DNA from: an uncultured delta proteobacterium
GTDB lineage: Bacteria > Desulfobacterota > BSN033 > UBA1163
DNA length: 64,000 bases
Direction of reading: 5' to 3'
Assembly (NCBI GenBank): GCA_963731045.1
Contig: CAVSVC010000022.1
Span: 2,113 to 66,112 of the forward strand
Part shown: positions 19,509 to 42,527 of the stretch, piece by piece
Position numbering within the stretch: the stretch's first letter is position 1
How the letters are laid out: every line of letters starts with the position of its first letter
Notes under the pieces: model-generated
The model's database searches: none
What the model was told of the DNA's origin: nothing
What the model saw: only the letters and a program-made list of their open reading frames with translations
Position numbers and translations under genes: made by a program

Positions 19509-20336
19509 CTAAGCCTTCCAGATGGCGATGTCGCCTACATTGATGTCTTTCTTCGTCACGTCTACCGGACCGAACTTCTGGGCCAGGTACCCGGGCTTTT
19601 CGATCAACAGCGTGTAGACACCGTCTTTGAGACCCCTCAGCCAGAAGTCGCCGTAGCTGTCGCTTACGGCCTGGAACTTCTGCCCGGTCTCGTTGTTCGT
19701 CGCCGTGATGGTGGCCCCTTCGGCACACTCATCCAACTCCTGATCGAGCAGGGCGCCTGCGATGAACTTCTTGGGCAGGCCGATGTAGTATACCCGCGGC
19801 TTCACGTGAGCCAGCGCCGGTTTCAGGGGCTCCGCCTTGGCGATGAGGTCCTTCAGATCCTCTTCTTCGCCGAAGGTGAAGGCGCCGGTGGGACAGGCAT
19901 CGACGCAGCGGGGTTCTTTCCAGCCCTTATCCAGCAGGTGCGCGCAGAACGTGCACTTCTGGGCGATGTTGAGCGCATCATTGAAGTAGATGATGTTCTC
20001 GTACGGGCAGGCCGCGATGCACATCTTGTTGCCGCGACACTTATCGGGGTCGATGATGACGGCCCCATCGTCCCGCTTGTAGATCGCCTTGACATTGCAC
20101 GCCGGTATACAGGGCGCATCGTCACAGTGCTGGCAGATGCTGTGCTCGTAGGTGACCATGACCTTGGGAACCTGGCCGCGGACGTTATCGTAGACCTTGT
20201 TCCAGAACTGTCCGGTGTCGGGCTGCGGCTTCGCGATAGGCGACCAGTCATTGGCCACATGCTCGTCCTTGCAGGCCACCTGGCAGTTGTAGCAGCCGTT
20301 GCAGATGTCGTAGTTGATGATCAGGACCTTACTCAT
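19509..20336 (-). CDS. Fe-S (three to four [4Fe-4S] motifs) beta subunit of a DMSO-reductase-family molybdoenzyme, with a C-terminal CarboxypepD_reg/Ig-like beta-barrel domain. It resembles the pyrogallol-phloroglucinol transhydroxylase small subunit.
   Basis: Intact 275-aa ORF with CNGCYNCQVAC, CQHCDDAPC, CRGNKMCIAACP and CTFCAH..RCVDACP. The C-terminal ~80 aa read TITATNNETGQKF..DSYGDFWLRGLKDGVYTLLIEKPGY. The start overlaps the alpha stop as TAATG. Confidence 0.9.
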   Translation of the reverse strand: MSKVLIINYDICNGCYNCQVACKDEHVANDWSPIAKPQPDTGQFWNKVYDNVRGQVPKVMVTYEHSICQHCDDAPCIPACNVKAIYKRDDGAVIIDPDKCRGNKMCIAACPYENIIYFNDALNIAQKCTFCAHLLDKGWKEPRCVDACPTGAFTFGEEEDLKDLIAKAEPLKPALAHVKPRVYYIGLPKKFIAGALLDQELDECAEGATITATNNETGQKFQAVSDSYGDFWLRGLKDGVYTLLIEKPGYLAQKFGPVDVTKKDINVGDIAIWKA

Positions 20337-22941
20337 TATTCACCTCCCATAAGGCATGCCTCTAAGCCGGGACCCGCACACGGGTGGAACGGGCGCTCGA
20401 AGGCTTCTGGATATTTGCGTTTGAGTGCTTCCATGTCGGTCTTCTCGATCTCCACCAGGAAGCCGCTGACCGCATGGCCCACTGCGTTCTTCGAGGTGGT
20501 GTTGCGCGGCACGATGGTGTTGATGGCACCGCCGCGATCGATCTCCCCGGGAACGATCGGGTCCCACTTCGCGCCGTGATCGATGTAGACCACGCCGGGC
20601 ATGACGCGCTCGGTAATATACGCGCCGCCCAGCACGGTACCGCGATCGTTGATGATCGAGACGATGTCGCCGTGCTTGATGCCGCGCTTCTCGGCCTCGG
20701 TCGGGTGCAGCCACACCGGGTGGTACTGATAGCCATCGGGACCTTTGATCTTGCAGGTTTCGATCTCGCGCAGCCAGGTGATGTCGTCGTGCTGCGAGTG
20801 CACACCCCAGCGCGGATGGTTGGAGCACACGAGCAGCGGATACTTCTTGGAGCGCTCGGTGCCGATGGTCTCCTCGTGGCTGATGCCTTTCGCGATCCAC
20901 TTGGGCACCGGTGGCCGCTCGAGGTCGTCCGGGAAGTGCTTTGTGAGACCGGTGGCCTCGAACTCGAGCTTGCCGGTCGGTGTCGAGAGCGGGTACTTCT
21001 CCGGGTCCTTGTAGAAGTTGTAGAAGCCGGCGGGAACCTCCTCCCAACCATCGGCCGTGGGCACCACAAAGTAGCCCTTCTCGTTGAGCTCCTCCCAGCT
21101 GATGAGGTCGGCGCACCGGGAGGTCTCCCAGCCGTACTTGATCAGCTCGGGGATGGACTTGCCGCCGGTGTACTTCTTCCAACAATCCCAGGCGCTCGGC
21201 GATCTTGCAGACGATCTCGTAGTCGCTGAACGACTCGCCGAGGGGTTCGATGCACTTGTGCTCCGGGAACAGAAGGTTGTACTGGCCGCTGAAGATGTCG
21301 CCGGCAATGTCGTCCTCTTCGAGCTTGGTGTTGACCGGCAGGATGATATCGGCCAGCAGACAGTCGTTCTCCAGCCATGGATGCTGGGCGAACATGAACT
21401 CGATGTCGGGGTGCCGCATCGCGCGGACGTAGTCGTTGCCCGTGTTCCAGCAGGTGATCCACGACGGAGAGTCCGTCCAGACCATGTGGATCTTGGAGCA
21501 GCCGTCCGCCGGGTACTTGTAGTGCACGAACTGATCTTTGCGATCGGCCGTCTCGGACTCGCAGCCCCACCAGTCGCATTGGCCTTCGAGGATGGCCTTG
21601 GGCACATAGGTCTTGGGGATGAACGACGGGTGGTTTGTCTCATCGGGATGGCCGCCGGTGTAGGCCTTGCGCAGGTAGGGCACGCGCAGCGGCTTGGGCT
21701 GGGCGTACTGGTCCGGCTTGTCGAAGAGACCCCACTCGATCATCTTGGCCTGGTTGACGCCGGGCTTGCCCAGTCCCTGCATGGCCAGGCAGATGCACTG
21801 CAGACGGGCCGGCTCGGTCGCGTAGGGGCCGCGGATGCCGGGGCCGCCGTTGCCGATGACCACGGTGGTGCGCTTGCTCGCCCATTCCTTGGCCAGGGCC
21901 TTGATGGTGCGGGCCGGTACGCCGGTGATCGGCGCAGCCCACTCGGGCGTCTTCGCAACGCCGTCCTCTTTACCCATGACATAGGCCTCGTACTTCTCGA
22001 CGCCGACGGCGTGCGTCTTGAGGTACTCCTTGTCGTAGGTGCCGTTCTTGAACCACTGATAGGTGATGGCCAGGTAGAGAGCCGCGTCGGTGTTGGGCAG
22101 CACCGGGATCCACCGGTCGGCGTGCACCGCGGCGGCGTAGTTGAGATCGGGCGAGACGTAGATCTGCTTGATGCCCAGTTCGGTCCACCAGTAGCTGAGG
22201 CGGCTCGGCAGCTGGCCCTGCCAGCCCCACGGCGTGGTTTCCTGATCGCAGCCCCAGAAAAGGAGCAGCTCGGTGTTCTTGGAGATGTCGTAGAGCAGGT
22301 TGCTTTGCATCCCCTGGCCGACCGGCTCGCAGCCCCAGAAGTGCTTGCTTCCCCACCACCAGCCTTCCCAGCTGTCGGGCTGACGGTTCTGCTGCGTGAA
22401 GCCGCCCCACAGGCGGAGCAGCTTGCGGCCGGCGCCGTGGCAGGCCTGCACGACCTTGTTCTCTCCGTGCTGGTCGCTCTGGTAGAGAACAGCCGTAGGA
22501 CCGTACTTCTTCTTGATGCGGTTCATCTCGCCGACGATGATGTCAAGAGCCTGGTCCCAGGAGATGCGCTTATACTTGCTGACGCCGCGGTTCTGCGGGT
22601 TGCGCTCGCCGTTGGGGTCGAAGTCGACACGCATCATGGGGTAGCGGATACGCGCCGGCGAATAGACGCGCTTCTTGTAGGCGATGGAGTACGGCGGAAT
22701 CAGGGTCTTCATGCTGGGCTCGAAGGTCTTGCCCCGCACTTCCATCTTCCAGGGGTTCATATCCTTCTTGGGATCGTACTTCCAATCGTAGTGCATCGGG
22801 CGGATACGGATGATCTTGCCATCCTTGACGTCCACCATCGAGGCGTTGGAACCGTTCTCAGGGACACCGCAGAAGCTGATATCTCTTATCAGCGTCTTTT
22901 CTTCCCCTTTTCCCTTGGTTTACTTTCTTTTTTTCTGCCAT
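20336..22941 (-). pseudogene. Molybdopterin (bis-MGD) oxidoreductase alpha subunit, pyrogallol-phloroglucinol transhydroxylase-like; two frameshifts as assembled
   Basis: GGGGAGG precedes ATG 22941 (MAEKKKVNQGK..), with a slip at about 22895 in an A/G run. Track ORF 20340..22838 is in frame down to ..CKIAERLGLLE. A slip at about 21180 leads into track ORF 20336..21643 (KYTGGKSIPELIKYGWE...VEIEKTDMEAL). Motifs seen: GERNPQNRG, ISWDQALDIIVGEMNRIKKKYGP, PDSWEGWWWG. There is no N-terminal Cys cluster and no RR (Tat) motif. Confidence 0.85.
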
Positions 22942-23162
22942 TTTTTCCTCCCCTCTCTCTAGATTTCGGGAATGTCACAAACAAACAATGACGCAAAGAC
23001 GTTACATCCCTCCTCCTGAAAAGATTCATCTCCTCTATAGCACATTCATTTCATCTCTTGCAAGCAAAAATAATTCAGGAAAGCATCCCTTCAAAATAAG
23101 CCCGCCCTGTTGGATTCCGTACGAGGACGAACCGAGAATGCAGCAGAGGTTGCGTTCGGAAA

Positions 23163-24161
23163 TCAGGCATCCTTGATCTCTAACGCCTTATGGGAAGCAA
23201 ATACGAACCGGTCCAGGCCGATCCATTTGAAGAACCTCGCAACCGGGCCGATGGTCACCAAGCCTCCCGGGGAGAAGATTCCCACCGCTGCCAGAATAAG
23301 TCCAAGGAACGTAAGGTGCAAGGCTTTCACCCAGACCGGAAGCCACCCTGCCGTCCAGAGAATCTCCTCGATCAGCATCATGAAGATTGCACCCACAATA
23401 GGACCCAGAAAGGTCCCTGTTCCCCCCAGCATGACCATCGTGACTGGAAGCAGCGCCTTGTCCGTGCCAAAAACAACTTCCGGATCGATGAAACCTGCGT
23501 ACCAGGCATAGACACCTCCAAGAAGTGCAGGGAACAGGGAACTGAGCACATATGCGCTCATCTTATATCGGGTGACATGAATCCCAAAAGCAGTTGCCAC
23601 TTCTTCATCTTCCCGGATACTGAAGAGGGCAAGACCGAATTTTGACCTGGGGATCCAATAACACACCAAAACGGTGAGCAGTGCGACAGCAAGGAAGATG
23701 TAGTAGGTTTCAAAAGCGCGGTAGCCGGGTTTCAGGGAAATTCCCTGTGTCCCGCCCGTAAAATCCCTGAGACTCCCCGCCACCAACTCGAATAATTTAA
23801 TCAGTCCAAAATTGGCCAGAGCAAAATAGCCCCCCTTAAGCCGTAGGAAAGGATAGCTAATGAGCGAGGAAAAAATCAACGTAATCAGGATGCCGGCGGC
23901 CATGCAGAAGATGAAAGGAACTCCTCTGCTGTAGAGAATCGAAAACCCATAAGCGCTGATTCCGAAAAAAACATAATGCCCTAAGTTGACGTAGCCGAGA
24001 TAGCCCGCTGTAATGTTGAAGCTCGCACCGATCCCGACATACATAAAGAAAAGGAGAAAGAAGACGACCCAATAGGGATCGATAAACCGGGGCATCACCG
24101 CCAAGAAAACAAGAAAAATGATTAAGATCCCCTCCCAGGGGTTCAGGCGTTTCTTAGACAT
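23163..24161 (-). CDS. livM: Branched-chain-amino-acid-type ABC transporter permease (LivM family)
   Basis: Intact 332-aa polytopic ORF with LivM-type blocks (NITAGYLGYVNLGHYVFFGISAY, LFSIREDEEVA). It overlaps the upstream livH end by 8 nt. Confidence 0.9.
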   Translation of the reverse strand: MSKKRLNPWEGILIIFLVFLAVMPRFIDPYWVVFFLLFFMYVGIGASFNITAGYLGYVNLGHYVFFGISAYGFSILYSRGVPFIFCMAAGILITLIFSSLISYPFLRLKGGYFALANFGLIKLFELVAGSLRDFTGGTQGISLKPGYRAFETYYIFLAVALLTVLVCYWIPRSKFGLALFSIREDEEVATAFGIHVTRYKMSAYVLSSLFPALLGGVYAWYAGFIDPEVVFGTDKALLPVTMVMLGGTGTFLGPIVGAIFMMLIEEILWTAGWLPVWVKALHLTFLGLILAAVGIFSPGGLVTIGPVARFFKWIGLDRFVFASHKALEIKDA

Positions 24162-25029
24162 GCTTAAATAATCCTTGCGGTTTCAGGAGCAGGACCAGCA
24201 CAAGGGTGCAGAAGGCCACGGCGAGGGACCAGTGTGCCCCCAGGAAAAAACCTGCAAATGTTTCTGCGACTCCGAGGATGAGTCCGCCCACAAGGGAACC
24301 GATCAGACTCCCGGACCCTCCGAGCATGACGATAGCGATATAACGGATCGTCAATGGCAGGCCGATGAAAGGGCCGATGGTAAAGAGCAGGACGTAAAAA
24401 AGGCCGGCGGTTCCGGCCAGTCCGATCGCAATCCCAAAAACCAACGTGACAATTCGGGGAACATTAATTCCGACCACCATGGCCCCTTCTCGGTTCTGAA
24501 GAATGGCCCGAATTGCTTTTCCGGCAAAAGATTTCTTCAGGTAGAAATGAAGGAAGATCGTGAGGGCGATGATGAGCACCAGAATGGAGAGTCGAAGGGA
24601 TGACACAACCACACCGCCCACATTGAAGGCAGGCATGGAATAGGAGACTCCTTTCACCGTCGGCCCCCAGATAAAGGACGTCGTATCTTCAATCGCTGTT
24701 GCGATGCCTACGGTGACGACAATCGATGAGAAGAGGAGTTGTCTCGGAGGACGATTGAGGATCGGCTTTATGAAGGCCTTCTGGTAAACCGCCCCGATCA
24801 GGATGAAAAGAGGGATGACCATGATGAGAATCAGGAAGGGGTTCAACCCGGTCACGGCAAAAAGGATATAGGTGACCAGTCCCCCCAGCATGAGAAACTC
24901 CCCGTGCGTAATGTTGAGGACGTCAGCGATACAGAAGATCAGGGAGAGCCCGAAGGCGGCAAGGGCATAGGTGCCGCCTTGGAGCACTCCCGCCAAAACC
25001 AATTGGATAAGAACCGTCGGCGTCAGCAT
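24154..25029 (-). CDS. livH: Branched-chain-amino-acid-type ABC transporter permease (LivH family)
   Basis: Intact 291-aa ORF with LQGGTYALAAFGLSLIF..NITHGEFLMLG and RAILQNREGA. Confidence 0.9.
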   Translation of the reverse strand: MLTPTVLIQLVLAGVLQGGTYALAAFGLSLIFCIADVLNITHGEFLMLGGLVTYILFAVTGLNPFLILIMVIPLFILIGAVYQKAFIKPILNRPPRQLLFSSIVVTVGIATAIEDTTSFIWGPTVKGVSYSMPAFNVGGVVVSSLRLSILVLIIALTIFLHFYLKKSFAGKAIRAILQNREGAMVVGINVPRIVTLVFGIAIGLAGTAGLFYVLLFTIGPFIGLPLTIRYIAIVMLGGSGSLIGSLVGGLILGVAETFAGFFLGAHWSLAVAFCTLVLVLLLKPQGLFKHV

Positions 25030-25182
25030 CCGTATTCCTTGATCCGTGAGAGCGTCAAGCGTAAGGCGCGAGGGGTTTACCCCTTACGCCTCACGACTGA
25101 CGCCTTACGGACGAGGGTTTTGATATTCGAATTTCGAAATGTTCCCAACCTCTAAATCATGTGTCGTGATTTCGACACAGCG

Positions 25183-26376: not shown

Positions 26377-26401
26377 AGATCTCCTCCTTTTCTGATGTGG
26401 G

Positions 26402-27862
26402 TTAGAGCCCGAGGTAAGCCTTCCGGATGCTCTCATCCTTCAGGAGTTCCGCGCTCTTGCCCTCTCTGACAACCCGGCCATTTTCCAGTACGTAGGTACG
26501 GTCCGAGATCTCCATGGCAAGCCGGGCATTCTGCTCCACCAGGAAGACCGTCACTTCCTGCCGATTGATCTTCTGTATCGTACGGAAGAGTTCCGCCACA
26601 ACAAGGGGTGCGAGCCCCATGGAGGGCTCGTCGATCAGCACGAGTTTCGGAATGGACATCAAGCCCCTTCCCACCGTGACCATCTGTTGTTCTCCGCCGC
26701 TCAGCGTTCCCGCGATCTGCAGTTTTCTTTCTCTAAGCCGGGGAAAAAGCTCGAAAACCCACTCGAGCGTTTCCACAATCTTCTGCCTTGCCCTGGGAGC
26801 ATAGGCCCCGAGTTCCAGGTTCTCAAGAACGGTCATCCCGGGAAAAAGCTTCCTCCCCTCCGGAATGAGGGTGACCCCCTTTTCGATGATCCTGTGTGGC
26901 GGCAGCCGATGAATCTGTTCGTTCAGAAACTGAATGGCGCCCGACGTGGGATGAAGCATTCCGGCGATCGTATTGATCATCGTCGTCTTGCCCGACCCGT
27001 TTGATCCGACCATGGTCACCATCTCTTTCGAAGAGATGGCAAGAGAGGTTTCCCAGAGGACCTGAATATCCCCATAATGGGTTGAAATCTTATCCACCTG
27101 GAGCATCATCTCAAGCGACCTGTTTCCCCCCTGGGCTCCCCCTTCGGCTCCGAGGTATGCCTCAATCACATCCTTGTTCTTGGAAACTTCTTCAGGTTTC
27201 CCCTGGGCAATCAGTTCACCGAAGTTGAGCACCAGGATCCGGTCTGAAAGGCCCATGACCGCTTTCATGATGTGCTCAATCATAAACACGGTGATTCCCC
27301 TCTTCTGAATCCTTCGAACCAGACTCATCATCGCTTCTGTTTCTGTCGGGTTAAGTCCGGATATCGCCTCATCGAGCAGAAGCACTTTGGGGCGGGTCGC
27401 CAATGCCCTGGCGATCTCCAGTTGTTTCCTCCCCACCAGAGTGAGGTTCTTAGCGGGAATATTCGCCTTCGGGGAGAGGCCCGTCAATTCCAGCAGATCA
27501 AGGCCTCTTTTTTCAATTTCACGGGCCGTTTCCGCTTTCGGCTTCCCAAAGTGGAGCCCGACAAGGATATTTTCATAGACGGTGAGACTCGAAAAAGGCC
27601 GGACGAGTTGGTAGGTCCTTGAGATCCCTTTATGGCAGATATCCCGGGCGCCTTGAGATGCAATTTCTTCTCCGTTGAATCGGATAGAACCCGATGAGGG
27701 AGGAAATGTTCCCGCGATAATGTTGAAGAGAGTTGTTTTGCCGGCCCCATTGGGTCCGATGAGGCCGAGGATCTCCCCGGACTCCATGGTGAACGAGATG
27801 TCATAAAGCGCCCTGAGGCCGCCGAAGTATCTCGTAACCCCTGTTACTTCAATAATGCTCAT
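26402..27862 (-). CDS. Fused LivG-LivF ABC ATPase (two nucleotide-binding domains in one 486-aa ORF)
   Basis: Domain 1 has GPNGAGKTT and ..LLLDEAISGL and ends EAYLGAEGGAQGGNRSLEM. Domain 2 starts MLQVDKISTHYG and has GSNGSGKTT, LSGGEQQM and LIDEPS. There is no stop or frame change at the junction (about 27100-27130). Confidence 0.85.
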   Translation of the reverse strand: MSIIEVTGVTRYFGGLRALYDISFTMESGEILGLIGPNGAGKTTLFNIIAGTFPPSSGSIRFNGEEIASQGARDICHKGISRTYQLVRPFSSLTVYENILVGLHFGKPKAETAREIEKRGLDLLELTGLSPKANIPAKNLTLVGRKQLEIARALATRPKVLLLDEAISGLNPTETEAMMSLVRRIQKRGITVFMIEHIMKAVMGLSDRILVLNFGELIAQGKPEEVSKNKDVIEAYLGAEGGAQGGNRSLEMMLQVDKISTHYGDIQVLWETSLAISSKEMVTMVGSNGSGKTTMINTIAGMLHPTSGAIQFLNEQIHRLPPHRIIEKGVTLIPEGRKLFPGMTVLENLELGAYAPRARQKIVETLEWVFELFPRLRERKLQIAGTLSGGEQQMVTVGRGLMSIPKLVLIDEPSMGLAPLVVAELFRTIQKINRQEVTVFLVEQNARLAMEISDRTYVLENGRVVREGKSAELLKDESIRKAYLGL

Positions 27863-31584: not shown

Positions 31585-32073
31585 TTATCTTCTTTTCCTT
31601 GAGCCTTCAGCCTTCGCTTTCCTTGCCCGCACCCTGGTAAGCGTCTCAGAGATCTTATCCACATCCAGGGCGATCTCCATAAGCTTCAGATGCTCCTCAT
31701 AGCATGCAGGGTCGATCTGGGCCTTCATCTCAGGCTCGATGATGTGATATACCGGGAGCCCCAGTGCGACTCCGGCCAGCGGTCCTGCCCAGGTCGGGTC
31801 TCCATTCGTTACCGTCTCAGCATAGAGCTCGGCGCTATCGGCATCCGGAGCCCCGAGGACAACGATGAGATCTTCCTTGCCGTACTGCTCTGCGACCTTC
31901 TTGATGCTTTCCTGACCTTCCAGGTCAAGGGCGCCTGCCGCAGTTCAGACAAAACACTGTGTCTGTACCAGCAGAGGCTCGGCTCCCGCACTCTGAACAC
32001 AGGCCGCGATCGCCGGTCCCTGAATCCCATCCCGTTCCCCCAGGATGATCACTTTCTTCCCTTTCAGTTTCAT
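31585..32073 (-). CDS. grdA: Glycine/sarcosine/betaine reductase complex selenoprotein A (GrdA), with in-frame UGA = Sec43
   Basis: Absent from the ORF track because it is split by TGA at 31945-31947. GGGAGG precedes ATG 32073. My translation is [101 protein letters not shown].., 162 codons ending at TAA 31585-31587. CFVUTAAGA is the GrdA active-site signature. Confidence 0.85.
31911..31929 (-). promoter_or_regulatory. Candidate SECIS hairpin for grdA
   Basis: The mRNA reads C-U-UGACCU-GGA-AGGUCA-G-G, an 8-bp stem including one G.U pair, starting 15 nt 3' of the UGA. Confidence 0.35.
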
Positions 32074-32181
32074 TGCCCATCCTCCCGTCTCAGACCCATT
32101 CCAACGTCCAGTTCCCGGGGACTTAAACGGATTCGATTTCCCTTTAGGTCGTGGGAGCTACTCTGGAATTTGGTGCTTTTC

Positions 32182-32511
32182 TTATTGCCCAACAATTTCT
32201 TTGATCGCTTCTTCAATATCCTTCTTGGTAAGCTGTTCGCCGGACAGACGCTTGACCTCAACCCCATTTCTGTAGAAGAGAAAGGAAGGGAGACCCAGGA
32301 CCCGCAGCTTTGCACAGAGCATGCGGTTCCCCGCAGCGGCATTCAGCTTTGTGACCTTGATTTTACCGGAGTACTCCTGCTCAAGGTGCTCAATGCTCGG
32401 CATCAGGGCCAGGCATGGAGCGCACTGGGGGCCCCAGAAATCTACAAGAACAGGCAGTTCCGATTGGAGAACTTCCGTTTCATAGTTGTCTTTATGAACG
32501 TCCACAGCCAT
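32182..32511 (-). CDS. trx: Thioredoxin with a CAPC redox motif
   Basis: Intact 109-aa ORF with VLVDFWGPQCAPCLALMP...LGLPSFLFYRNG. The ATG overlaps the grdC stop as TAATG. Confidence 0.9.
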   Translation of the reverse strand: MAVDVHKDNYETEVLQSELPVLVDFWGPQCAPCLALMPSIEHLEQEYSGKIKVTKLNAAAGNRMLCAKLRVLGLPSFLFYRNGVEVKRLSGEQLTKKDIEEAIKEIVGQ

Positions 32512-33992
32512 TATTCGTTACCCCCCTCGTTCTTTTCGAGCAAGATCGATATTCCGTCGGAAAGCTGCGTCAACCGTCCGAGAAAGAGGCTCCCCTTGGC
32601 CAGAAGCATCGTATTTCTCAGCTTTCCCGACTTGATATTCCGGATGGCATGACCGAGATACGGTATGGCCGAAGCAATATGCCCCTGGGTTGGAGAAAAA
32701 CCGGGCATCCCGTGGGTCTTCACAAACTGGTCCAGCTCGCTCTTCTGAATCTCATTTCGCAGGACGGCAAAGCTGCCGATCGTCCGGTAATTCGTGCGGG
32801 GAACATTTCCACTCCCCTGCGGCTCCGTCACTTCCGGATTGTGCATCTCTGTCGCATATTTATCGATCTGGGTCAGCTTAAGTCCAAGCCGGTCGAGGGG
32901 CTCGACGACCAGCTTCTCGAGGATCGCCTGCTGAGCGGAGCCTGAGCTGATTTCATGTTTTCCAATAGAATCCAGACGGATGACCGGGCTTCTTCCGTCA
33001 TCCTGAGTCACCCAGACAGCGATTCCCGCCAGAAGATCCTCCAGGACCGGCATATCATGCCGAACGTGCCCCTGGAATTTCATCCCCAACTTCGCCAGGG
33101 ATCCCCCCGCCACCATCACCACGTTGCTGAAAACGCCGGAGGAGACCAATCCCGCCGCCATCATCAGGGCGTGAACAGGCGCGCAGCAGAAGGCCTTGAC
33201 GTCGGAACCCGTCGCCCGGGTGCAACCGCACAGCTGCCCGATTGCCTTGGCCAGGTTTCCTCCTCCGCGGTTATAACGGTCTCCGATGGCTTCCTCTCCA
33301 TACCCGATGAGATAATCGATATCTTTTGCCGAACCGGTCTTTGAAATGAGGTTTCGCAATGCCATCACCCCGGAGGCTCTTGAGGATAGATTTTCGAGCA
33401 TGATGGAGGGAATAAGGTTTTCATCCTCCTCGGCGCCATCCCCCTGCGGTCTCTTCACGCATCCTACGAGGCGGTTCCCCTGGACATAGAGGGGCAGGAC
33501 ATCTCCTTGCTCCAGCTTCTTTTCCAGCCCCTCTTTGGAAACGCCTTTGCCGAGTTTCTGAATATCCTCCTCCACAAAAAGCGGGTGAACCCTGAGCATG
33601 GCCACCACACCGTCCAGAAAACTCTCCTCGAGTGTGATCAGGCCGAACTCATCACAGAGCTTCAACACCCCGTAGAACTCCTCCTCCGGCATGATCTCCC
33701 CGAACTCGCCCCACCGCGAAGCATTCGGAACAGGATTCCGATACCACGGAGAAGGCGTGTTCCACAATTCGTCGGGATCAAGATTTCCAATGAAAACCTG
33801 ATTCGGCGGATAAGGAACGGCCTGCTCGAAAGGTCTTAAATGGTTGAGGATCGGCTGCAGTTGTGATGGATCATGTCTGATCTCCCGAGAGGGCTTTGAC
33901 CCGTACCGGATCAGGCTCGGCACGTGGGCAAGAAAATAAGAAACCCCTGTAATGACCGGGAGCATCCGTTTATCCGACGAACGATGGGACAT
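32511..33992 (-). CDS. grdC: Glycine/sarcosine/betaine reductase component C beta subunit (GrdC)
   Basis: Intact 493-aa ORF with blocks I recognise from clostridial GrdC: VPYPPNQVFIGNL.PDEL, RLVGCVKR, NRGGGNLAKAIG, ATGSDVKAFCCAPVHAL, EMHNPEVTEPQGSGNVPRTNY, AKGSLFLGRLTQLSDGISI. Confidence 0.85.
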   Translation of the reverse strand: MSHRSSDKRMLPVITGVSYFLAHVPSLIRYGSKPSREIRHDPSQLQPILNHLRPFEQAVPYPPNQVFIGNLDPDELWNTPSPWYRNPVPNASRWGEFGEIMPEEEFYGVLKLCDEFGLITLEESFLDGVVAMLRVHPLFVEEDIQKLGKGVSKEGLEKKLEQGDVLPLYVQGNRLVGCVKRPQGDGAEEDENLIPSIMLENLSSRASGVMALRNLISKTGSAKDIDYLIGYGEEAIGDRYNRGGGNLAKAIGQLCGCTRATGSDVKAFCCAPVHALMMAAGLVSSGVFSNVVMVAGGSLAKLGMKFQGHVRHDMPVLEDLLAGIAVWVTQDDGRSPVIRLDSIGKHEISSGSAQQAILEKLVVEPLDRLGLKLTQIDKYATEMHNPEVTEPQGSGNVPRTNYRTIGSFAVLRNEIQKSELDQFVKTHGMPGFSPTQGHIASAIPYLGHAIRNIKSGKLRNTMLLAKGSLFLGRLTQLSDGISILLEKNEGGNE

Positions 33993-34010
33993 AAGACGGC
34001 AATTCCTTTC

Positions 34011-34166: not shown

Positions 34167-34185
34167 TGATCACTCGTTTTTGCCT

Positions 34186-35487
34186 TTAGCACAGGATCCT
34201 CTGTTCCTCGATCTCGGTCTGCAGGGCTTTCAACGCCTTTTCAACAATCGAACGGCGCAGCTTCTTCTCTTCCGGTCCGGGAAGATCTGCATTGCCCAGC
34301 GGATTGACGATCTTCTGGCCGGGAAGAATCCTCATGGAACCCACCATCTGGGCAACGGGGGTGATCGCACAGAGGTGAACGGTGGGAATCCCGACCCTCT
34401 CTATCTCCTTTGTGAGCGTTGCACCGCAACGCGTGCTCGTCCCTCAGGTGGAGGTCAGGATCACCCCGGAAACTCCATCCGCCTTCAACTCCCCGGCAAT
34501 CCGTTCTCCCAGTTTTCTCATGACCTCTACGATATTCGCAACACCTGTTGTGCTGTAAAACCTGTCATGGAGCTTCCCGATCAGCCCTTCCCGTTCGAGA
34601 TCCCTGAGAACGTCCACAGGGACCAACCGGTTCGGGTCCTGCCTCACGAAGATCGAGTCATAGCCTTCATGACTGACTTCATAATCTTCGGGATGGAGTC
34701 TTTCGACATCCTTAATATCATATCTCCCAAAACGCGTTGCCGTCCGGATCTCAATCCTGTCCGGATTCCCTTTCGGAACCAGCCCGCCATCCGTCACCAG
34801 CGCAATCTTCGCCTTCCCGATCTCTTTGATGGCCGGGGCCGGCTTCACCCGGTCGTACGTGGGCCGAGGGACTTCGGATTCATACGGCTCTCCCCGCAGT
34901 TTGCACAGCAGCAGGTCCAGAACGCGTTCCGCCCCTGTTCTGTCTGAGATTTCATTCACCAGCAACCCACGGGGGAAGTATCCCTCTTCAGAAGGTTTTC
35001 CTATCCTCTCTTTGGCCACAAGCTTCCGGACAAGGGCCACGATCTTGCCGACAGCCTCAGCCATTCCCCTCGCGGAGTCCACGGTTTGAATAATATAGAC
35101 CTCGTTCCGGTACATGTCGACGCTGGGGTTTTCCTGATACATTCCGGTGACGGCCGGGATTCCCAGTTGCTCCTGGACGATCTTGCAAACGGCGCCGCAG
35201 GCGATGCCGTATCGTCCCGCGTTAAAGGCCGGTCCCGCAATGACGACGTCGGGCCCATAGGAATCAATCATGCTTCTTACTTCCGCCGAGGCCCCTTCAA
35301 TATTTTCCGCAAAATAGTTGTCGCCGCAGATCACGGTAGCCACCACCTGTCCTTCTTTTCCCAAGGCGGCCTGGATAGCTCTGCCCGGCCCCACGGCTCC
35401 TTCGGTCACCCGGGGAGGCAGGTGCGCCTTATCTTCTCCGCCAATCCCGCCGAAAAACTGATTGACATAATGGACCACTCTGATCAT
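34186..35487 (-). CDS. Selenoprotein B family reductase subunit (GrdB/GrdF/GrdH-like), with in-frame UGA = Sec348
   Basis: Track ORF 34444..35487 (MIRVVHYVNQFFGGIGGEDKA...GVILTST) stops at TGA. The same frame continues GTSTRCGATLTKEIERVGIPTVHLC...QRILC to TAA 34186-34188, giving 433 codons. Confidence 0.85.
34416..34432 (-). promoter_or_regulatory. SECIS-like stem-loop for the grdB-like gene
   Basis: The mRNA reads GCGUUGC-GGU-GCAACGC, a perfect 7-bp stem with a GGU loop (17 nt). It begins exactly 11 nt after the UGA at 34446-34444. Confidence 0.55.
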
Positions 35488-35611
35488 TTAAACTCTCCTG
35501 ATCTCCACCCCCATCCCGACTGAGGGCACTAAGCGATGCGTTGCCGATTCACTTCCGATTTTGTTCTAACGCTATGCCCTATGCCCATGTTGCGCTATGC
35601 GGGTTTTCCCA

Positions 35612-36914
35612 TCAATACCGGACTGCCTTCAGTTTTGAACTCCCGAGCTGGCACTGTGAACCCTTAATCCAGCGGATGGACCTCATCATCTCGCCGTCAA
35701 CCGGCGCCCCCTCCTGCGACGGATCGGGTCTTCCGATGATCCTGTCCACAGCAGGCAGCAGCACATCCATGAAAGGGACCCCCATGCTCACGATGGCATC
35801 CACTTCCGGCATGCTGAAGATCGTGGTGGCCCCGAATTTCGCATCGCTGATATCCGCCCCCATGTGGAGCATGGCAATGGCCGTTTTGATCCCGAGCTGT
35901 TCACAACGCTGGGCAGTCCTTGCCATGGTCAGTTCAGGGGCGCCCCCTCCCGTCTTCGTCAGGACCGCACCCTCTGCGCCGACAACGTATCCGGCCAGAT
36001 TTGCCGAGATGTTCGAAACCCGCTCAATGTCCGCCACATTGTTCGGTGCAAGGGTAATGATCACCCCCGCAAAACGAAAGTTCTCTTCCATGTCTTCTGT
36101 AGAGTTCTCTGATGATCGGGTGATTCTGGATCTGATAGGTTTGCACGTTCAACGCCGGCAGGGCGGATGTGATTGCCCCATCCAATACCTCGTTGGGATG
36201 AACCAGGGTGGGAACCATATCCGGGACATTCCTACCGTACAGCACAGGCTCTCCCGGGATGGGTTCGAATTGCAGGGTCTGAATCTGAAAGATGTAGACG
36301 ATCCGGGGAAGCTTTCCGGAAACCTCCACACTCGCCGTCAGCGGAAGAAGCTCAAACACCTCGGTCTCATCAGGCGTAACGCCCTTCCCCGCCTTTGCAA
36401 GATAGGCGGATGCCTTCAGTCCGGCGACCTTCATCGCAGCCATGTATTCCTGCGTGGTCACACCCTGTGAAGGAGTTCCCAGCAGAACAATATTCCGGGT
36501 CTTTCCAAAGGTGCTCACCTCCGCGCCCGGACCGGACATATCGATGATCTCCCCGTTAGGGTATGAACTCGTGCTGCCTTCACGCCTCTCCCGGTAGTCG
36601 CTCAAGACGACGGCAGTTCCCTTTAAGACACACGTGCTTCCTGTGCCCGCGGCTGCCTGCCCTCCTACGGCCCCGGGAAAATCCTGATCTCCGTTGCTTG
36701 TTTTTGCTCTTGGTTCGATCACATCCAGCACCTTCAGGATGCGACATTTCTCCCCGGGCTGAGCCAGATCAATCTCAATGGATTGAAGCCTCTGATCCTC
36801 CAGCAGGAGGTTCTGAAGCTCACTGCGGTTGATAGATAAGACCCCGTCGCTAACGGCAGTTCTGTCTCCGAATCGAATCCCTCGAATCTTCAGAATATTC
36901 AGTTCAAGTCTCAT
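35612..36914 (-). pseudogene. GrdE/GrdG/GrdI-like substrate-binding proprotein of reductase component B, one frameshift
   Basis: Track ORF 36024..36977 (from Met22: MRLELNILKIRGIRFGDRT..IDLAQPGEKCRILKVLDVIEPRAK..HPNEVLDGAITS..HPIIRELYRRHG) joins ORF 35612..36091 (NFRFAGVIITLAPNNVADIERVSN..GAEGAVLTKTGGGAPE..) at about 36080. Confidence 0.8.
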
Positions 36915-37092
36915 CCAATGATGCCTTTCGAAGAGAAGGTTTCGTCCAACGGCCATGGGACGACACCCGTCACTCATTCGGTTAGGTCTTTCGGTTCCAA
37001 AAGCTCACGTTGCCGTTTCCGCCAAACGAAACGGGCTCCGTAGCCATAGCCCTAACCGCCCCCTGGGGGCCGGCGCCCCCGGGGGAGAAGTC

Positions 37093-38436: not shown

Positions 38437-38619
38437 ACCTCCTTTTGTAGAATCATCGGGATTGCATTCGTTAGGATCTCACAAGTTATATGGCACCGAT
38501 CGTATCCTCTACTCGTTCGAAAAAGGAAGTTCGTCTACCGTCAGGGTTAAGAGCTTCTGGCTCTACCTCGGGCAGGTGCATCGGCACGTTGTACCCTTCG
38601 GCAGGGGCACCTCTTTCTT

Positions 38620-40450
38620 CTACGGGATTTCGCCTTTATCCGCCTTGTCGGCCTTCAGTTTCTTTCGTAAGGCCGTCGTCGCCTTAGGATCCACTTCAGA
38701 TCCGTTCCCTTCTTGAACACAACACCATATGCCTTGTTCGCCTTTTCAGGGGAGATATACCGATTGAGGACATCCCACCGGACCTTCTGGACATCCCGCT
38801 GCAGGGGATCTCCGACACCGCCGCCTCCGCCCGATTTGCTCCAGAGGATATCGCCGGGTTGAACGTACTGAACGTCATTGCAGCGCAGCTTTTCTTTCTT
38901 TCCTTTCCGGATGATGCCCAGCTGGTGTTTCTTTCCTTCGGTCCCTCCCAGCAATCCCAGGCGCCGAACTTCTCTCCGTCGGAATTGCCCGTCATCACGA
39001 CACAATCATGGGCCTGCCAGACCTTGCGATCGTAGGTATTCAGGATCTCCCAGTGGACACCCGTTGCCGCCCCGCCATTTCCCGTCACCTGCTGAGTCCG
39101 TGATGAACTCGTGACGCAACCATCGATACGGAGTCTCCCATTCCTCCGGTTCTATCGGCGCCCTCAGAGACCCGCCCGCTCCGAGAACCCAGCAGAGTCC
39201 ATCCCAGCCGTCGTAGCCATAGATGGCCCCCATCGAACCATCCCCGTGAAAGGGGGCCGTCCAGTAAAGCTGGGGGGATTTGGTTCGCGGGATCAACGAG
39301 GTCCCGACGCCTCCCGGTGATAATGGGATTCAGGTGCCGCGCCCAGAGGGCGGAAGTATCCTTCGGAACCACCTGGCCCAGGGCCACCTGGACACATTCC
39401 GTAACATGCGTCCCCAGCGTGGGGGCCTGGGCCCCGCTGGTTGCCGGATAAATCGGGTCGAGGACCGATCCCTCCTTGGTTAGAATCGTGAGGCAATTCA
39501 TCAACCCCTGGTTCCGCGGGGTTTGCGGAGGAAGGGACCATGCCACTGCAGTCACGATGGCTGCCCGGGTCTGGCCCTGTGGGCAATTGATAAAATCAAC
39601 CTGGGCGTCGCTCTCCCTAAAGTCCAAGATCAGTTGCCCCTCCTCGGGCTTGACGGTCATGGTCAAGCCTCACCCAGACCGGCTTATCCACGGTTCCGTC
39701 CCAGTCCGCAGCCCGTTCGGCCCGGTAGGTACCCGCCCGCCACGTCGAAATGACCTTCCTCACCGATTCCTCCGTCCGGCTTGACGATCTCGTTGCAGGC
39801 CTCCAGCACCGTCTCCTTTCCGTAACTCTTCACCAGCTCGAGCAACCTCTTCTCGGCCATCTTCATGGAGGCATAGGTCAGCAGGCAGTCGGCACGGACC
39901 ATGGTGGATCCCCTCGAACGTTGCGCAGGATGACTGACAGGACCTTTTCATCAATCTTCCCCCGCTCGATCAGCTTCACGGGCGGAATCATGATCCCCTC
40001 CCCATGGCAGTCATAGGTCCGGGGATAATAGCAGCCCTGGTACGAGCCGCCCGCATCGTACTGATGGGTTCTCATGAAATGATAGAACACCAGTTCCCCT
40101 TCAAAGAAGATGGGCCGAATGAAGGAGAAATCCGGGGCATGGCCGAACTTCACGATAAAGGGGTCGTTGGCCACGATGAAGTCATCCTCGTGGATATTCT
40201 CCCGGCCGATATAATCCAGCATCCCCTTCAGACAGACATCCGACCCGGCGGTGTGGACGGGCATCCAGTTGCCGATGGTAATGGTCCGCTCATTCCGGTC
40301 AAACAGGGCCGTGCCAATGTCCCGGATATGGGCCGTTGCAAAGGAGAAGCACTGACGGAATAGCCTGAACCCGAGTTCCTGATTCTGGGAATTCAAGCGG
40401 CCTTCGATGATCGATAGCGTCAAGGGATCAATGGGTTTGCTCGTGCTCAT
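38620..40450 (-). pseudogene. hyuB: Hydantoinase B / oxoprolinase family subunit (HyuB), at least five frameshifts
   Basis: Starts MSTSKPIDPLTLSIIEGRLNS..RDIGTALFD. Later blocks fall in shifting frames: MVRADCLLTYASMKMAEKRLLEL, TVKPEEGQLILDFRESDAQV, CPQGQTRAAIV, YGYDGWDG, DSAGDGKWRGG.G, SGGGGGVGDPLQRD, ending ..KADKGEIP* at 38620. Confidence 0.8.
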
Positions 40451-42527
40451 GATGACCTCCTTATGCTCATGATATAGTTATGATAGGCATCGACCGTCAG
40501 TTCGGTTCCCTTCGGTACGACGATGGTCGTCGTCGGATCCTCCACGATCGCCGGCCCATCGATCACGTTCCCATGCTTCAGCCGATTCGCATCGTAACAG
40601 GGTGTTTCGGCGAATCCCCCAAGTTCTTTAAAGTAGACCTGCCTCTTCCTTTTGAAAGCCCCTGAGGCATCTCTTCCCATGTCCGGCTGTTTGATCAGCT
40701 CAACCGGACGCCTCACGCCGATCGCCCTGACCTTCAGCGTCGAGATGGCCACCGCCATGGCCGGGTCGGACCACCCGTAGATCGCCTGGTGTCTTGCGTG
40801 GAATTCCGCTGATCAAATCCTTCAGGGTCTGATCCGTAAAGGGTTCTCCTCTCCGGTTTTCCGGCAGGAAGATGACGATATCACGAAGTTGTCCGAGGTA
40901 TCGCATCTCAGCGCCCCGCACCAGTTTCATATCTCTCTCCGGGGAGGCCCTGTTTCGCCAGGGTATCGACCCCTTCGCTTTCCAGCGAGTCATACCAGCC
41001 CTTCATATCCTCTACACGAAGTTGATCTTCGCCCCGGTAGATACAGAGGTTCAGAATATATTCGTAGTTGGCCAGCGCCGCTCCAAGGGCGCAGAAGGCC
41101 GCAGCCTGTCTCGGAATGTAGATCTGCGAGATCCCCAGGCGGGATGCGATCGCAGCGGCATGGACCGGACCGGCCCCTCCGCCGGCAATCAGGGTAAAGT
41201 CCCGCGGATCGAGCCCCCTTTCCACCGCACTGAGAAAGATCCCCTGAGCCATGTTGTCCTCAACGAGAGCGGCAACGGCATGGGCAGCGGAAACCACATC
41301 CAGATTCAATGGCTTTGCAACCTTCTTCTCCATCGCATCCTTGGCCAACCCGGCATCCAGTGTGATGGTCCCACCGAGGAAAAAGTCAGCGGGAATGTAT
41401 CCCAGAATCACATCCGCATCCGTGACCGTCGGATCCTGGCCGCCCTTCCGGTAGCACGCCGGTCCGGGATCGGCCCCGGCGCTCGACGGACCCACCTGAA
41501 GGATGTTTCGAGCGTCGATTCTGGCAATGCTTCCCCCACCCGCCCCGATGCTGCTCACGTCCACGGACTCCAGGGCGTTGATGAAATCGCCTACCCTCAT
41601 TTCCGGGGTGACATGGATGGTGGCCCCCGGAAGCATACTCATATCAAAGGTGGTTCCCCCCATGTCGGCGACGATCACATTCTTAAACCCGCACAGCGTT
41701 GCCAGGAACCGTCCGAGCAAGGGCCCGGCAGCAGGACCCGAGCCAATGAGGAGAGCGGGGTTGTCCAGGCACAACTCCGGAGAGGCTACCCCGCCGATAC
41801 ACGTCGTAAACAGGTAGGTCCCTGCGAACTGACCGCACTTCAGCTCTTCACTCAGACTCTCGATGAAACGGGCCACCACGGGTTTCACGGATCCCGCAAT
41901 CATGGCGGTGCTCAGGCGGTCCCACTCCATCCAGCGCCGCAGGATATGGGATGAGAGCACTACATTCGGGTACTCTTTCTTTATGATCTCCCCTGCCTTT
42001 TCCTCATGCGCCGGGTTGATGTAGGAGTGAAGAAAGCAGACGACAGGCACCTCGACGCCCTGCTGTTTGGCTTTCTTGACCGCGTCGCGCACATCCTTTT
42101 CGTTGAGCGGGGTCACAATCTCTCCGTTGAACTGGATCCGTTCCTCGACTCCGAAACGCAGATAGCGCGGAATAAAACTCTCCGGTGCGGGTAGTTTGAG
42201 ATTGTAGATTTCATCCTTGGGAATCCGCCGGCCCAATTCCGGGATATCCCTGAAACCCTTGGTGTAGATCAGGCAGCACTTTGCCCCTTTCTTCTCCACC
42301 ACCGTGTTTGTCGGAAACGTCGTGCCGATCACGATGGTCGTCGTATCTTTCAGCAGGTCCTGCGTCGTACACGCGCGCTGCTCGGCAAACCGTTCAATGC
42401 AGCCCATGATGCCGAGGGACGGATTGGCGTGGTCCGTAGGGACTTTCGCCATGAAAATTCGCCGATCGTCGTCTATCAGTATTGCATCCGTAAACGTTCC
42501 ACCGGTGTCCACAACGATTTCGTACAT
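40447..42527 (-). pseudogene. hyuA: Hydantoinase A / oxoprolinase family subunit (HyuA), two frameshifts near the 3' end
   Basis: Track ORF 40908..42527 (MYEIVVDTGGTFTDAIL..ADMGGTTFD..GAGGGSIA) is followed by 40700..40993 and 40447..40758 (..VEDPTTTIVVPKGTELTVD). The stop overlaps the hyuB ATG as ATGA. Confidence 0.85.

Follow-up and report, generated by a model that had tools for sequence, protein, structure and literature searches.

Linkage of hyuAB-type genes to an atypical Grd-type selenoenzyme reductase in an uncultured deltaproteobacterium and its relatives

To our knowledge, the substrates known for Grd-type selenoenzyme reductases are only glycine, sarcosine, betaine, D-proline (for the related Prd enzyme) and, recently, fluoroacetate, each of which defines an energy-conserving electron sink for anaerobes. 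In these systems, GrdD carries the thiol that releases acetyl phosphate. Autocatalytic pyruvoyl formation requires Cys242 and a partner cysteine, both of which are absent in GrdI and FarE (PMC10838667). Tissierella creatinophila degrades creatinine via creatine and sarcosine (PMC5364220), and Clostridium sp. FS41 has an anaerobic, ATP-independent N-methylhydantoin amidohydrolase together with a canonical sarcosine-specific protein B (PMC4417704). Here, a locus is described from an uncultured delta proteobacterium (assembly GCA_963731045.1, contig CAVSVC010000022.1, positions 2,113 to 66,112 of the forward strand; this whole stretch of 64,000 nucleotides is referred to as the window). In this locus, genes for a HyuAB-type enzyme adjoin those of a Grd-type reductase that lacks the two processing cysteines. 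The pair may form an electron-accepting catabolic module in which ring opening by HyuAB feeds a pyruvoyl-independent Grd-type reductase, a reading judged to have an even chance of being correct.

Gene content and conservation of the hyuAB-grd core

From 42527 down to 19509, every gene supported by the open reading frame (ORF) list and by Pfam lies on the minus strand, in agreement with the co-directional array claimed in an initial annotation. The four longest plus-strand ORFs inside the array (21084-22991, 31690-32652, 35541-36470 and 40872-41954) have no Pfam match. The core of the finding spans ~42.5 to 28 kb and has the order hyuAB, Liv-type binding protein gene, grdE*/grdB* (the latter with selenocysteine, Sec), grdC, trx, grdA (Sec) and ABC importer. 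The labels grdE* and grdB* are used here for the atypical Gly_reductase-family and selenoprotein-B-type genes of this locus.

42527-40447, minus strand: hyuA, ATP-binding alpha subunit of a predicted HyuAB-type ATP-dependent lactamase/hydantoinase
40450-38620, minus strand: hyuB, metal-dependent hydrolytic beta subunit; ATGA overlap with hyuA
38436-37093, minus strand: solute-binding protein 1 (SBP1), Liv-type (Peripla_BP_6), with signal peptide, between hyuB and grdE* (Pfam)
36914-35612, minus strand: grdE*, protein-B alpha-type subunit, Gly_reductase family (PF09338 match split over two frames)
35487-34186, minus strand: grdB*, selenoprotein-B-type subunit of 433 amino acids; Sec TGA at 34444-34446
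34406-34443, minus strand: SECIS-like hairpin immediately 3' of the grdB* UGA (Rfam SECIS_4)
33992-32511, minus strand: grdC, protein C beta subunit (NCBIfam reduct_C_beta)
32511-32182, minus strand: thioredoxin (trx), active site CAPC; TAATG overlap with grdC (Pfam Thioredoxin)
32073-31585, minus strand: grdA, selenoprotein A with CFVU motif; Sec TGA at 31945-31947
31469-30723 (LivG-like) and 30709-29990 (LivF-like), minus strand: ATPases of ABC importer 1 (Pfam ABC_tran / BCA_ABC_TP_C)
29790-28927 (LivH-like) and 28919-27957 (LivM-like), minus strand: permeases of ABC importer 1 (Pfam BPD_transp_2)

The gene families named initially were all recovered: HyuA/HyuB, GRDB, Gly_reductase, GrdC, thioredoxin, GRDA, two Liv-type ABC importers, and a bis-molybdopterin guanine dinucleotide molybdenum (Mo) enzyme with an Fe-S subunit. 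The junctions also read as described, with ATGA at hyuA/hyuB and TAATG at both grdC/trx and the junction of the two Mo-enzyme genes (Mo-alpha/Mo-beta); translational coupling is seen at hyuA/hyuB and grdC/trx. The description of the spacers as short holds in part, as nine gaps measure ~95-220 bp (183, 178, 124, ~193, 108, 115, 199, 153 and 221 bp). As several spacers are of this length (95-220 bp), a single transcript across all 23 kb cannot be taken as given.

The linkage of hyuAB to the reductase genes, proposed initially as a point to be checked across genomes, is conserved. Related loci from other genomes are given L-numbers, L001 being a close deltaproteobacterial-type relative. All HyuA relatives of at least ~70% identity with readable surroundings adjoin grdE*/grdB* (six of six arrangements, including one from Chloroflexia). 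In L001-3, hyuAB-SBP-grdE*B*C-trx-grdA-ABC is divergent from an XRE regulator, and LivG/LivF genes follow grdA as in the window. L005/L012 likewise have an XRE regulator and a divergent hyuAB-grdE*B*C-trx-grdA-SDR. The order is TAXI-TRAP-hyuAB-SBP-grdE*B* in L004, hyuAB-grdE*B* in L009 and TRAP-hyuAB-grdE*B*C-trx-grdA in L095. In L028, a Chloroflexia metagenome-assembled genome (MAG), hyuBA is divergent from SDR-grdC-trx-grdA-grdE*B*; in the other five arrangements, hyuAB and grdE*B* share one orientation. Identities between L028 and L001 (HyuA 80%, GrdC 77%, GrdA 80%) fit transfer across phyla as one module. The binding-protein gene lies between hyuB and grdE* in L001-4 and the window, and L087 and L004 carry homologues of 51-55% identity next to grdE*. 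A full-text literature search showed no paper describing a hyuAB-grd locus, consistent with the initial statement that such a combined locus is not known from the standard Grd literature, and it likewise returned no description of "creatine reductase" genes or of the GrdE*/GrdB* clade.

The GrdE*/GrdB* family extends beyond these loci, with 97 matches among GTDB species-representative genomes, of which 80 loci were kept. It occurs in Desulfobacterota, Dehalococcoidia, Methylomirabilota/Rokubacteria, Tectomicrobia and Planctomycetota, among other groups. Among GrdE* proteins of 65-76% identity, some have hyuAB alongside and others do not, and since most loci of the GrdE* clade are without it, HyuAB is an accessory, not a defining, partner. 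Among the loci without hyuAB, TRAP systems that are mutual orthologues (58-69% identity) stand beside GrdE* in L007, L016 and L092, and a Tct system does so in L013. In L087, the neighbor is a Liv importer (binding protein 51% identical to SBP1), and grdA is immediately followed by a gene for a RutB-like amidase; in L091, a GMC (choline-dehydrogenase-like) oxidoreductase follows grdB*. TRAP and Tct systems transport carboxylates, so organisms without hyuAB probably take up the open-chain substrate as such, by way of TRAP, Tct or Liv transporters.

Two further observations were made within the family. Syntrophaceae and other deltaproteobacterial MAGs have two to three paralogous grdE/grdB pairs adjoining each other (L013, 493-12432; L016, 6189-12767), which by analogy with P. 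acidaminophilum and Cloacibacillus implies that several substrate-specific protein B components may feed one GrdA/GrdC there. A distant branch (L033-L086; Dehalococcoidia/SAR202, Methylomirabilota/Rokubacteria and Entotheonella) of 35-45% identity is pyruvoyl-less by sequence, retains Sec within UGTSTRSG and has no GrdD nearby; these lineages are not usually regarded as Stickland fermenters. A Pfam census of 97 flanking ORFs in the Dehalococcoidia/Rokubacteria branch revealed no consistent feeder enzyme, the counts being five for DsbH-like thioredoxin proteins, four for family III CoA-transferases and four for luciferase-like oxygenases.

The assignment of HyuAB draws on its motifs and its relatives. 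HyuA contains the ATP motifs DTGGTFTD, DMGGT and GADPGP, and HyuB retains equivalents of all four metal ligands of CapB (D41, H99, D102 and H124; PMC8453981). Against NCBIfam models, HyuA scores 538 bits with CapA (cut-off 1000) versus 326 with acetophenone carboxylase ApcC, and HyuB scores 244 bits with CapB (cut-off 1000) versus 91 with ApcD; HyuAB misses all NCBIfam equivalog cut-offs. The best PDB matches of both subunits are N-methylhydantoinase and caprolactamase (1e-106, versus 1e-74 for acetone carboxylase), and 5-oxoprolinase is among the closest relatives of HyuA (NCBIfam, PDB). The cluster holds no carboxylase gamma-like gene. Judged by domains, ATP motifs and metal ligands, HyuAB is predicted to be of the ATP-dependent lactamase/hydantoinase type. 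Grouping with acetone or acetophenone carboxylases, which was raised initially as a finding that would speak against the proposal, was not observed: HyuAB groups with the lactamases and hydantoinases. A carboxylase of this kind, hinted at by the recurring SDR neighbor, was considered as a candidate and ruled out by the similarity scores and the absence of extra subunits.

Both selenoprotein genes are readable through their stop codons. In grdA, the in-frame UGA falls in the CxxU motif, and the read-through translation matches Pfam GRDA at 1e-65. The grdB* frame continues for 85 amino acids past its TGA (Pfam GRDB, 1e-148), the Sec context is TSTUGTSTRCG (UxxSxxC), and the SECIS_4 match at this UGA is under the gathering score (27.9 bits, E = 0.009) and exactly in the expected position. 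GrdB* passes only the subfamily model TIGR01918 (563 bits; cut-off 65). It is under the NCBIfam cut-offs for GrdF (NF040794, 580/800 bits), GrdB (TIGR01917, 551/602) and GrdH (NF040795, 468/775), as is GrdE* for GrdG (NF040793, 264/780) and FarE (207/675). GrdB* also fails the published GrdB and GrdF motifs (Nobu et al. 2022, PMC9751293); as positive controls, A. noterae GrdB and P. acidaminophilum GrdF pass their respective motifs. Canonical GrdB and GrdF carry UGTCTRCG (UxxCxxC), and the window is without UxxCxxC. UGTSTRCG is found in the window and 41 related loci, and UGTSTRSG, in which both cysteines are lost, in 37; all of them carry Sec.

The references for comparison of the remaining components were GrdE, GrdB, GrdC and GrdD of Acetoanaerobium noterae and GrdG and GrdF of Peptoclostridium acidaminophilum. 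The processing site of canonical GrdE and GrdG reads DGAI(L/T)SGNC(242)V(S/A)(A/P)CDK, whereas the window and its relatives read DGAITSALPALNVQ. Aligned to GrdE of A. noterae and GrdG of P. acidaminophilum, GrdE* of the window has DGAITSALPALNVQTY against the canonical DGAILSGNC(242)VSACDKNPTY. Cys242 and the partner cysteine are thus absent from GrdE*, SALPALN occupies the site, and 16 clade members show no conserved cysteine at this position. These features suggest that GrdE*B* is probably a pyruvoyl-independent reductase. GrdC passes the equivalog NF040746 (647 bits; cut-off 450) and is 45% identical to A. noterae GrdC, and the thioredoxin shares 40% identity with TrxA of A. noterae, which is likewise Grd-linked. 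The active site of this thioredoxin is WGPQCAPC (CAPC; 32182-32511), the usual one being WCGPC. With A. noterae GrdD as the query, tblastn gave no match in the window or in 86 related loci, and no homologues of TrxB or GrdX were found in the window. Since no GrdD is encoded nearby, and given its role, the final step would either differ or use a GrdD encoded elsewhere. Structural relatives add little on the ligand: the PDB holds no sequence relative of GrdE*, those of SBP1 are Leu/Ile/Val-binding proteins and all distant, and the best solved relative of the Grd-linked TRAP binding protein is 4mnc (2e-22), none being close.

Proposed pathway and alternative explanations

From this gene content, we infer the reaction order and the kind of substrate as follows. 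The Liv-type ABC importer, whose binding protein gene lies between hyuB and grdE*, would take up a small glycine-derived cyclic amide, ureide or amidine, with rings of the hydantoin/N-methylhydantoin or creatinine/glycocyamidine type as candidates. HyuAB would phosphorylate the lactim form and hydrolyze the ring at the expense of ATP to give an open-chain X-CH2-COO-. The selenocysteine of GrdE*/GrdB* would then attack the alpha-carbon and expel X, dispensing with the pyruvoyl Schiff base used for glycine and sarcosine, as has been suggested for the betaine reductase GrdHI and the fluoroacetate reductase FarEB. The carboxymethyl group would pass to selenoprotein A and on to GrdC as an acetyl thioester, with electrons from the co-encoded thioredoxin. 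The last step, to acetyl phosphate, acetyl-CoA or acetate, would be carried out differently or with a GrdD encoded elsewhere. The alternative offered initially, in which a HyuAB-family lactamase feeds the reductase, comes close to this pathway. If the pathway is right, another reducible substrate is probably present in soils and sediments, the last Grd step can be organized differently, and Stickland-like chemistry occurs in uncultivated Desulfobacterota and Chloroflexota. The locus also provides concrete proteins for ligand and activity screens, namely HyuAB, SBP1, the orthologous TRAP binding proteins and GrdE*B*.

On chemical grounds, a cationic N-amidino leaving group, as in creatine or guanidinoacetate derived from creatinine or glycocyamidine, would be best suited to a pyruvoyl-less enzyme. 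The RutB-like partner, together with the N-methylhydantoinase activity known in this family, would instead favor the ureido series (hydantoate, N-carbamoylsarcosine). A more specific and tentative proposal, held with clearly less confidence than the general pathway, is a selenium-dependent "creatine or hydantoate reductase". In this case, a stable five-membered ring derived from glycine (creatinine, glycocyamidine, hydantoin or N-methylhydantoin) would be opened with ATP and the resulting N-amidino- or N-carbamoyl-(methyl)glycine cleaved directly, with neither pyruvoyl nor GrdD, releasing (methyl)guanidine or (methyl)urea and an acetyl unit. Such an enzyme would add a new substrate class for Grd-type reductases, on the basis of a GrdE*/GrdB* family present in about 100 GTDB species.

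Several observations weigh against the coupling of HyuAB to the reductase. The neighbors of the reductase converge on no single substrate, and the flanking enzymes vary (RutB-like in L087; GMC in L091 and probably L010; SDR in L004, L005 and L028). Only 2 of the ~10 GTDB representative loci with GrdE* of at least 58% identity and a usable upstream flank have hyuAB, and a 65%-identical HyuAB in L006 occurs with a Liv importer and an SDR and no grd genes. L095 has a TRAP and not a Liv-type binding protein before hyuA, a poor fit to a neutral ring unless that TRAP serves the neighboring DHDPS/PyrD genes. The pyruvoyl-less assignment rests on alignment and another carbonyl cofactor may be used, genes for GrdD, TrxB and GrdX may lie in other parts of the genome, and genuine recent pseudogenization in this organism, considered below, keeps a small probability. 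An unlikely alternative that accommodates some of these points is that HyuAB and the Grd-type enzyme are co-located and functionally independent, perhaps under a common regulator, with HyuAB as an ordinary 5-oxoprolinase or lactamase serving 5-oxoproline salvage within an island devoted to amino-acid and peptide catabolism, and the reductase acting as a variant glycine- or betaine-type electron sink. In its favor, peptide and amino-acid functions abound in the window (an S15 X-Pro dipeptidyl peptidase, two M24 prolidase-like genes and several Liv-type importers), 5-oxoprolinase is close to HyuA, the GrdE* clade is mostly without hyuAB, and the GMC oxidoreductase of L091 hints at a betaine-like substrate. 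It is opposed by the constant association of grdE*B* with the HyuA subclade, by the binding-protein gene inserted between the two, by the joint passage of hyuAB and grd into Chloroflexia (L028), and by GrdB* itself, which scores lowest with the betaine model GrdH and fails the glycine motif.

The initial annotation had noted that four enzyme families of a creatinine route occur in the window. HyuAB and the Grd type stand at the family level; the amidase and the creatinase do not. The corresponding route, from creatinine by deamination to N-methylhydantoin, by HyuAB to N-carbamoylsarcosine, by the amidase to sarcosine and by a genuine sarcosine reductase to acetyl phosphate and methylamine, is accordingly improbable. 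In its favor, the sarcosine models GrdF and GrdG are the NCBIfam models that GrdB* and GrdE* match best, albeit under threshold, and N-methylhydantoinase counts among the nearest relatives of solved structure for both HyuA and HyuB. An isochorismatase-fold ureido-amidase also stands directly after grdA in L087 and has a 45%-identical homologue at 61731-62390 in the window, and both amidase neighborhoods include an aldehyde:ferredoxin oxidoreductase (AOR; 82.5% identity). However, GrdE* is without the two pyruvoyl cysteines that the sarcosine subunit GrdG of P. acidaminophilum has, and GrdB* fails the GrdF motif and cut-off. The protein at 61731-62390, taken initially for an N-carbamoylsarcosine amidase, lies 19 kb from the cluster and is far nearer RutB (8bkd, 1e-47) than N-carbamoylsarcosine amidase (1nba, 3.5e-11), with the RutB cut-off also missed (TIGR03614, 205 bits; cut-off 378). 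The supposed creatinase at 12083-14443 proved to be two tandem frameshifted M24 genes, each broken into several frames, prolidase-like and 23 kb away; the best PDB matches of the M24 catalytic fragment are Xaa-Pro dipeptidases, with no creatinase at E <= 1e-3. Neither a creatinine deaminase nor a creatininase was identified. The background given initially for T. creatinophila also required correction, as its route runs via creatine (PMC5364220), and the characterized anaerobic N-methylhydantoin amidohydrolase, that of FS41, is ATP-independent (PMC4417704). N-carbamoyl compounds stay candidates because a RutB-type ureido-amidase recurs with the reductase, in L087 and in the neighborhood of the window.

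A different objection concerns whether the genes of this copy are functional. Twelve indels fall in four array genes (hyuA 2, hyuB 7, grdE* 1, Mo-alpha 2), so that the hyuAB frames are interrupted by nine indels where the orthologues are uninterrupted. Those of hyuA (two +1 insertions, near 40936 and 40809), hyuB (~39913, 39779, 39663, 39292, 39065, 38960 and 38700) and grdE* (one +1 insertion near 36075) were placed by DNA alignment to the close relative L001 (HyuA 92% identical). The Mo-alpha frameshifts (~22920 and ~21176) are indicated by homologues that start MAEKKK and align in two further frames. The Pfam domains Hydant_A_N, Hydantoinase_A and Hydant_A_C of hyuA are correspondingly spread over three frames, as are the Hydantoinase_B fragments of hyuB. 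In L001, all genes are intact (HyuA 692, HyuB 610 and GrdE* 433 amino acids), and intact HyuA orthologues have 689-692 amino acids. Once the frames are corrected, hyuB shares 93% identity with its orthologue; its dN/dS is 0.030, and no gene of the cluster has a lower dN. For hyuA, dN/dS is 0.050, and for the other cluster genes 0.04-0.12. Given the intact relatives and the low frame-corrected dN/dS, the 12 indels are most likely assembly errors and not decay. Seven neutral indels should be accompanied by a non-synonymous excess, and none is seen. A decaying pseudogene array, in which the indels are real and the pathway is non-functional in this organism whatever its state elsewhere, is rather improbable. 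It is consistent with the concentration of indels in certain genes (seven within the 1.8 kb of hyuB), with the many uninterrupted window ORFs of 1.2-1.9 kb and with the truncated HyuA of 539 amino acids in the public record. It is at odds with the conservation of hyuB, with the retained catalytic motifs of HyuAB and with the fact that unrelated genes are hit too (two M24, aconitase-like, FAD-protein and pyrK-like genes and the otherwise 97%-conserved Mo-alpha). Patchy frameshifts are a pattern typical of unevenly polished long-read assemblies, and their distribution amid intact ORFs of 1.2-1.9 kb looks like such an assembly. Apparent pseudogenes in this record are thus probably assembly artefacts. 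Frameshift patches elsewhere in the window (12050-19400 and 45780-45840) affect two M24, FAD_binding_2, Fer2_3, aconitase-family, Amidohydro_2 and pyrK-like genes, and split genes also occur in related GTDB MAGs with 'contig_NNNN' names (L030, L031).

A further question is how far the functional unit extends, as the array continues past ABC importer 1 with a second importer and the Mo enzyme.

27862-26402 (double ATPase), 26376-25183 (SBP2), 25029-24154 and 24161-23163 (permeases), minus strand: ABC importer 2 (Pfam)
22941-20336, minus strand: Mo-alpha, AthL/BthL-like, presumably cytoplasmic (Pfam AhtL-like_1st and Molybdopterin)
20336-19509, minus strand: Mo-beta (Pfam Fer4_11 and CarboxypepD_reg)
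19439-19453, minus strand: terminator-like hairpin directly past the Mo-beta stop; weak, from a consensus scan alone

Resolution of the frames corrected Mo-alpha from 22838..20340, as given initially, to 22941..20336. By a wide margin, the best PDB match of the Mo enzyme is 4v4c (1.6e-109 for alpha, 3e-43 for beta), and it resembles, and is predicted to be of, the pyrogallol-transhydroxylase type. Homologues of Mo-alpha (865-878 amino acids) are 85-97% identical in several phyla, and Mo-enzyme homologues carry the labels Dehalococcoidales, Thermoleophilia, Actinobacteria, Chloroflexota and Aminicenantes. The differing G+C content (62% in the Mo genes versus ~55% nearby) and the high identity across phyla suggest an independently mobile module that may have been transferred recently and widely. 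At best, the Mo enzyme is loosely linked to the hyu-grd core. Of the single 23-kb unit claimed initially, with importer 2 and the Mo enzyme included, the common strand and a loose synteny hold up, and nothing further supports it. That the whole array is one operon for one pathway, with the Mo enzyme hydroxylating or otherwise transforming the ring substrate or the leaving group, is very unlikely. Apart from the single strand, it could appeal to the lack of a convincing intergenic terminator before 19453-19439 and to L093-95, where AthL/BthL orthologues (97% and 91% identity) follow grdA, ~7 kb away and with the same orientation, and pyrK/pyrD-like and DHDPS genes are shared upstream of hyuA. 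The intervening genes there are, however, wholly different (two ABC systems in the window versus DUF4124, Fer4 + AOR, and Fer4 with an opposite-strand Mo enzyme in L095), and because the lineages with Mo-grd synteny are close relatives, common descent is a sufficient explanation. In addition, spacers of 199 and 221 bp come before the later units of the window, none of the 80 GTDB loci has an AthL-like gene less than 10 kb from grdE*, the Mo gene stands apart in G+C content and conservation, and no counterpart of importer 2 was seen next to grd in other loci. The LivG-LivF fusion of importer 2 is a 486-amino-acid protein with two ABC_tran domains (26402-27862); given the indel errors elsewhere, it could be real or an artefact joining two genes.

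Regulator and surrounding genes

The divergent XRE-cupin regulator reported initially at the head of the array was found.

42821-43423, plus strand: XRE-type helix-turn-helix and cupin regulator of PuuR-like architecture (Pfam HTH_3 and Cupin_2)
42528-42820, no strand assigned: regulator/hyuA intergenic region, AT-rich, with a weak sigma-70-like match and a ribosome-binding site (GGAAGGAGGG); aligns with L001

The regulator scores 55 bits with NCBIfam PuuR, under the cut-off, and its orthologue is likewise divergent from hyuA in L001-3 (89% identity) and L005 (71%). The promoter-like element placed initially in this region (42667-42639, minus strand; TTGACT-17-TAATTT) has 8 of 12 matches and did not hold up, being under the scan threshold. 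Across 30.5-43.6 kb, the promoter scan gave 5 sites against 6.3 expected by shuffling, which is not above chance, and promoter and terminator scans yielded no operon boundaries. An Rfam scan of the whole window at gathering threshold was empty, with neither a glycine nor a guanidine riboswitch, and a permissive Rfam scan of 30-44 kb returned the SECIS_4 match only.

Upstream of the array, an island at 43506-55768 encodes a DHDPS-family protein, a pyrK/pyrD-like class 1B dihydroorotate dehydrogenase, TctCBA, a dihydroorotase (DHOase)/hydantoinase-like amidohydrolase, an ADSL-like lyase, a DUF4286 protein and two Amidohydro_2 proteins; L001 and L095 show synteny with parts of this island. The island could serve catabolism of orotate or of an N-heterocycle, or plain pyr/pur biosynthesis. 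Because PyrD and the ADSL-like protein pass housekeeping equivalog cut-offs, the pyr/ADSL genes may be biosynthetic. Orotate or pyrimidine catabolism as a theme common to the PyrD/PyrK-, DHOase-, ADSL- and RutB-like proteins and Tct was considered and rejected, as no route leading from pyrimidines to X-CH2-COO- could be constructed. Further on, 56149-62390 encodes AOR, a ThiS-like protein, a third Liv-type binding protein, an S15 peptidase and the RutB-like amidase, and the same AOR-to-amidase set directly abuts grdA in L087 (15314-19849). Of the three Liv-type binding proteins named initially, two lie inside the array and the third lies outside it, at 58597-59817.

Comparison with known systems

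At the periphery of the locus, the Mo enzyme shares with the pyrogallol-phloroglucinol transhydroxylase AthL/BthL of Pelobacter acidigallici (4v4c) the ~870-amino-acid alpha subunit with an AhtL-like first domain and the 275-amino-acid beta subunit with Fe-S clusters and a carboxypeptidase-regulatory-like C-terminal domain. It differs in lying downstream of amino-acid-type ABC importers, without phloroglucinol-pathway genes, and in its unusual conservation across phyla. With T. creatinophila and Clostridium sp. FS41, both anaerobic, the proposed pathway would have in common that it ends in a Grd-type reductase acting on a glycine derivative from a five-membered N-heterocycle. In FS41, the ring is opened without ATP and protein B is the canonical sarcosine type, whereas the window encodes a ring-opening enzyme of the ATP-dependent type and a reductase that is not of the sarcosine type. 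HyuAB of Pseudomonas putida 77, CapAB of P. jessenii and 5-oxoprolinase have the same two-subunit architecture, domains, ATP motifs and metal ligands as HyuAB of the window, which, as they do, lacks a carboxylase gamma subunit. The genomic partner of these known enzymes is an aminotransferase, an N-carbamoylsarcosine amidase or a glutathione-cycle enzyme; here, it is a selenoenzyme reductase.

Closest in its proposed mechanism are FarEB of Cloacibacillus porcorum MFA1 and GrdHI (GrdI compared by description only), which are likewise without both processing cysteines and presumably pyruvoyl-independent, so that a substrate bearing a leaving group that needs no Schiff-base activation would be expected (PMC10838667). 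The similarity to them is low (FarE 207/675 and GrdH 468/775 bits), no HyuAB partner is described for either, and GrdB* retains one of the two CxxC cysteines where FarB retains none. With the canonical glycine, sarcosine and betaine reductases of Peptoclostridium acidaminophilum and Acetoanaerobium sticklandii, the window shares the CxxU selenoprotein A, the STUG Sec motif, the Gly_reductase partner, GrdC and thioredoxin, and carboxymethyl-selenoether chemistry is probably common to both. In contrast to the canonical complexes, the window has neither the Cys242-type site nor UxxCxxC, and GrdD, TrxB and GrdX are missing both from the locus and, to a distance of 10 kb, from more than 80 related loci. 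The canonical complexes belong to Clostridia or Synergistota, whereas the hosts here are uncultivated Desulfobacterota, Chloroflexota and similar groups, in which a predicted ATP-dependent lactamase, absent from the canonical systems, is encoded together with the reductase.

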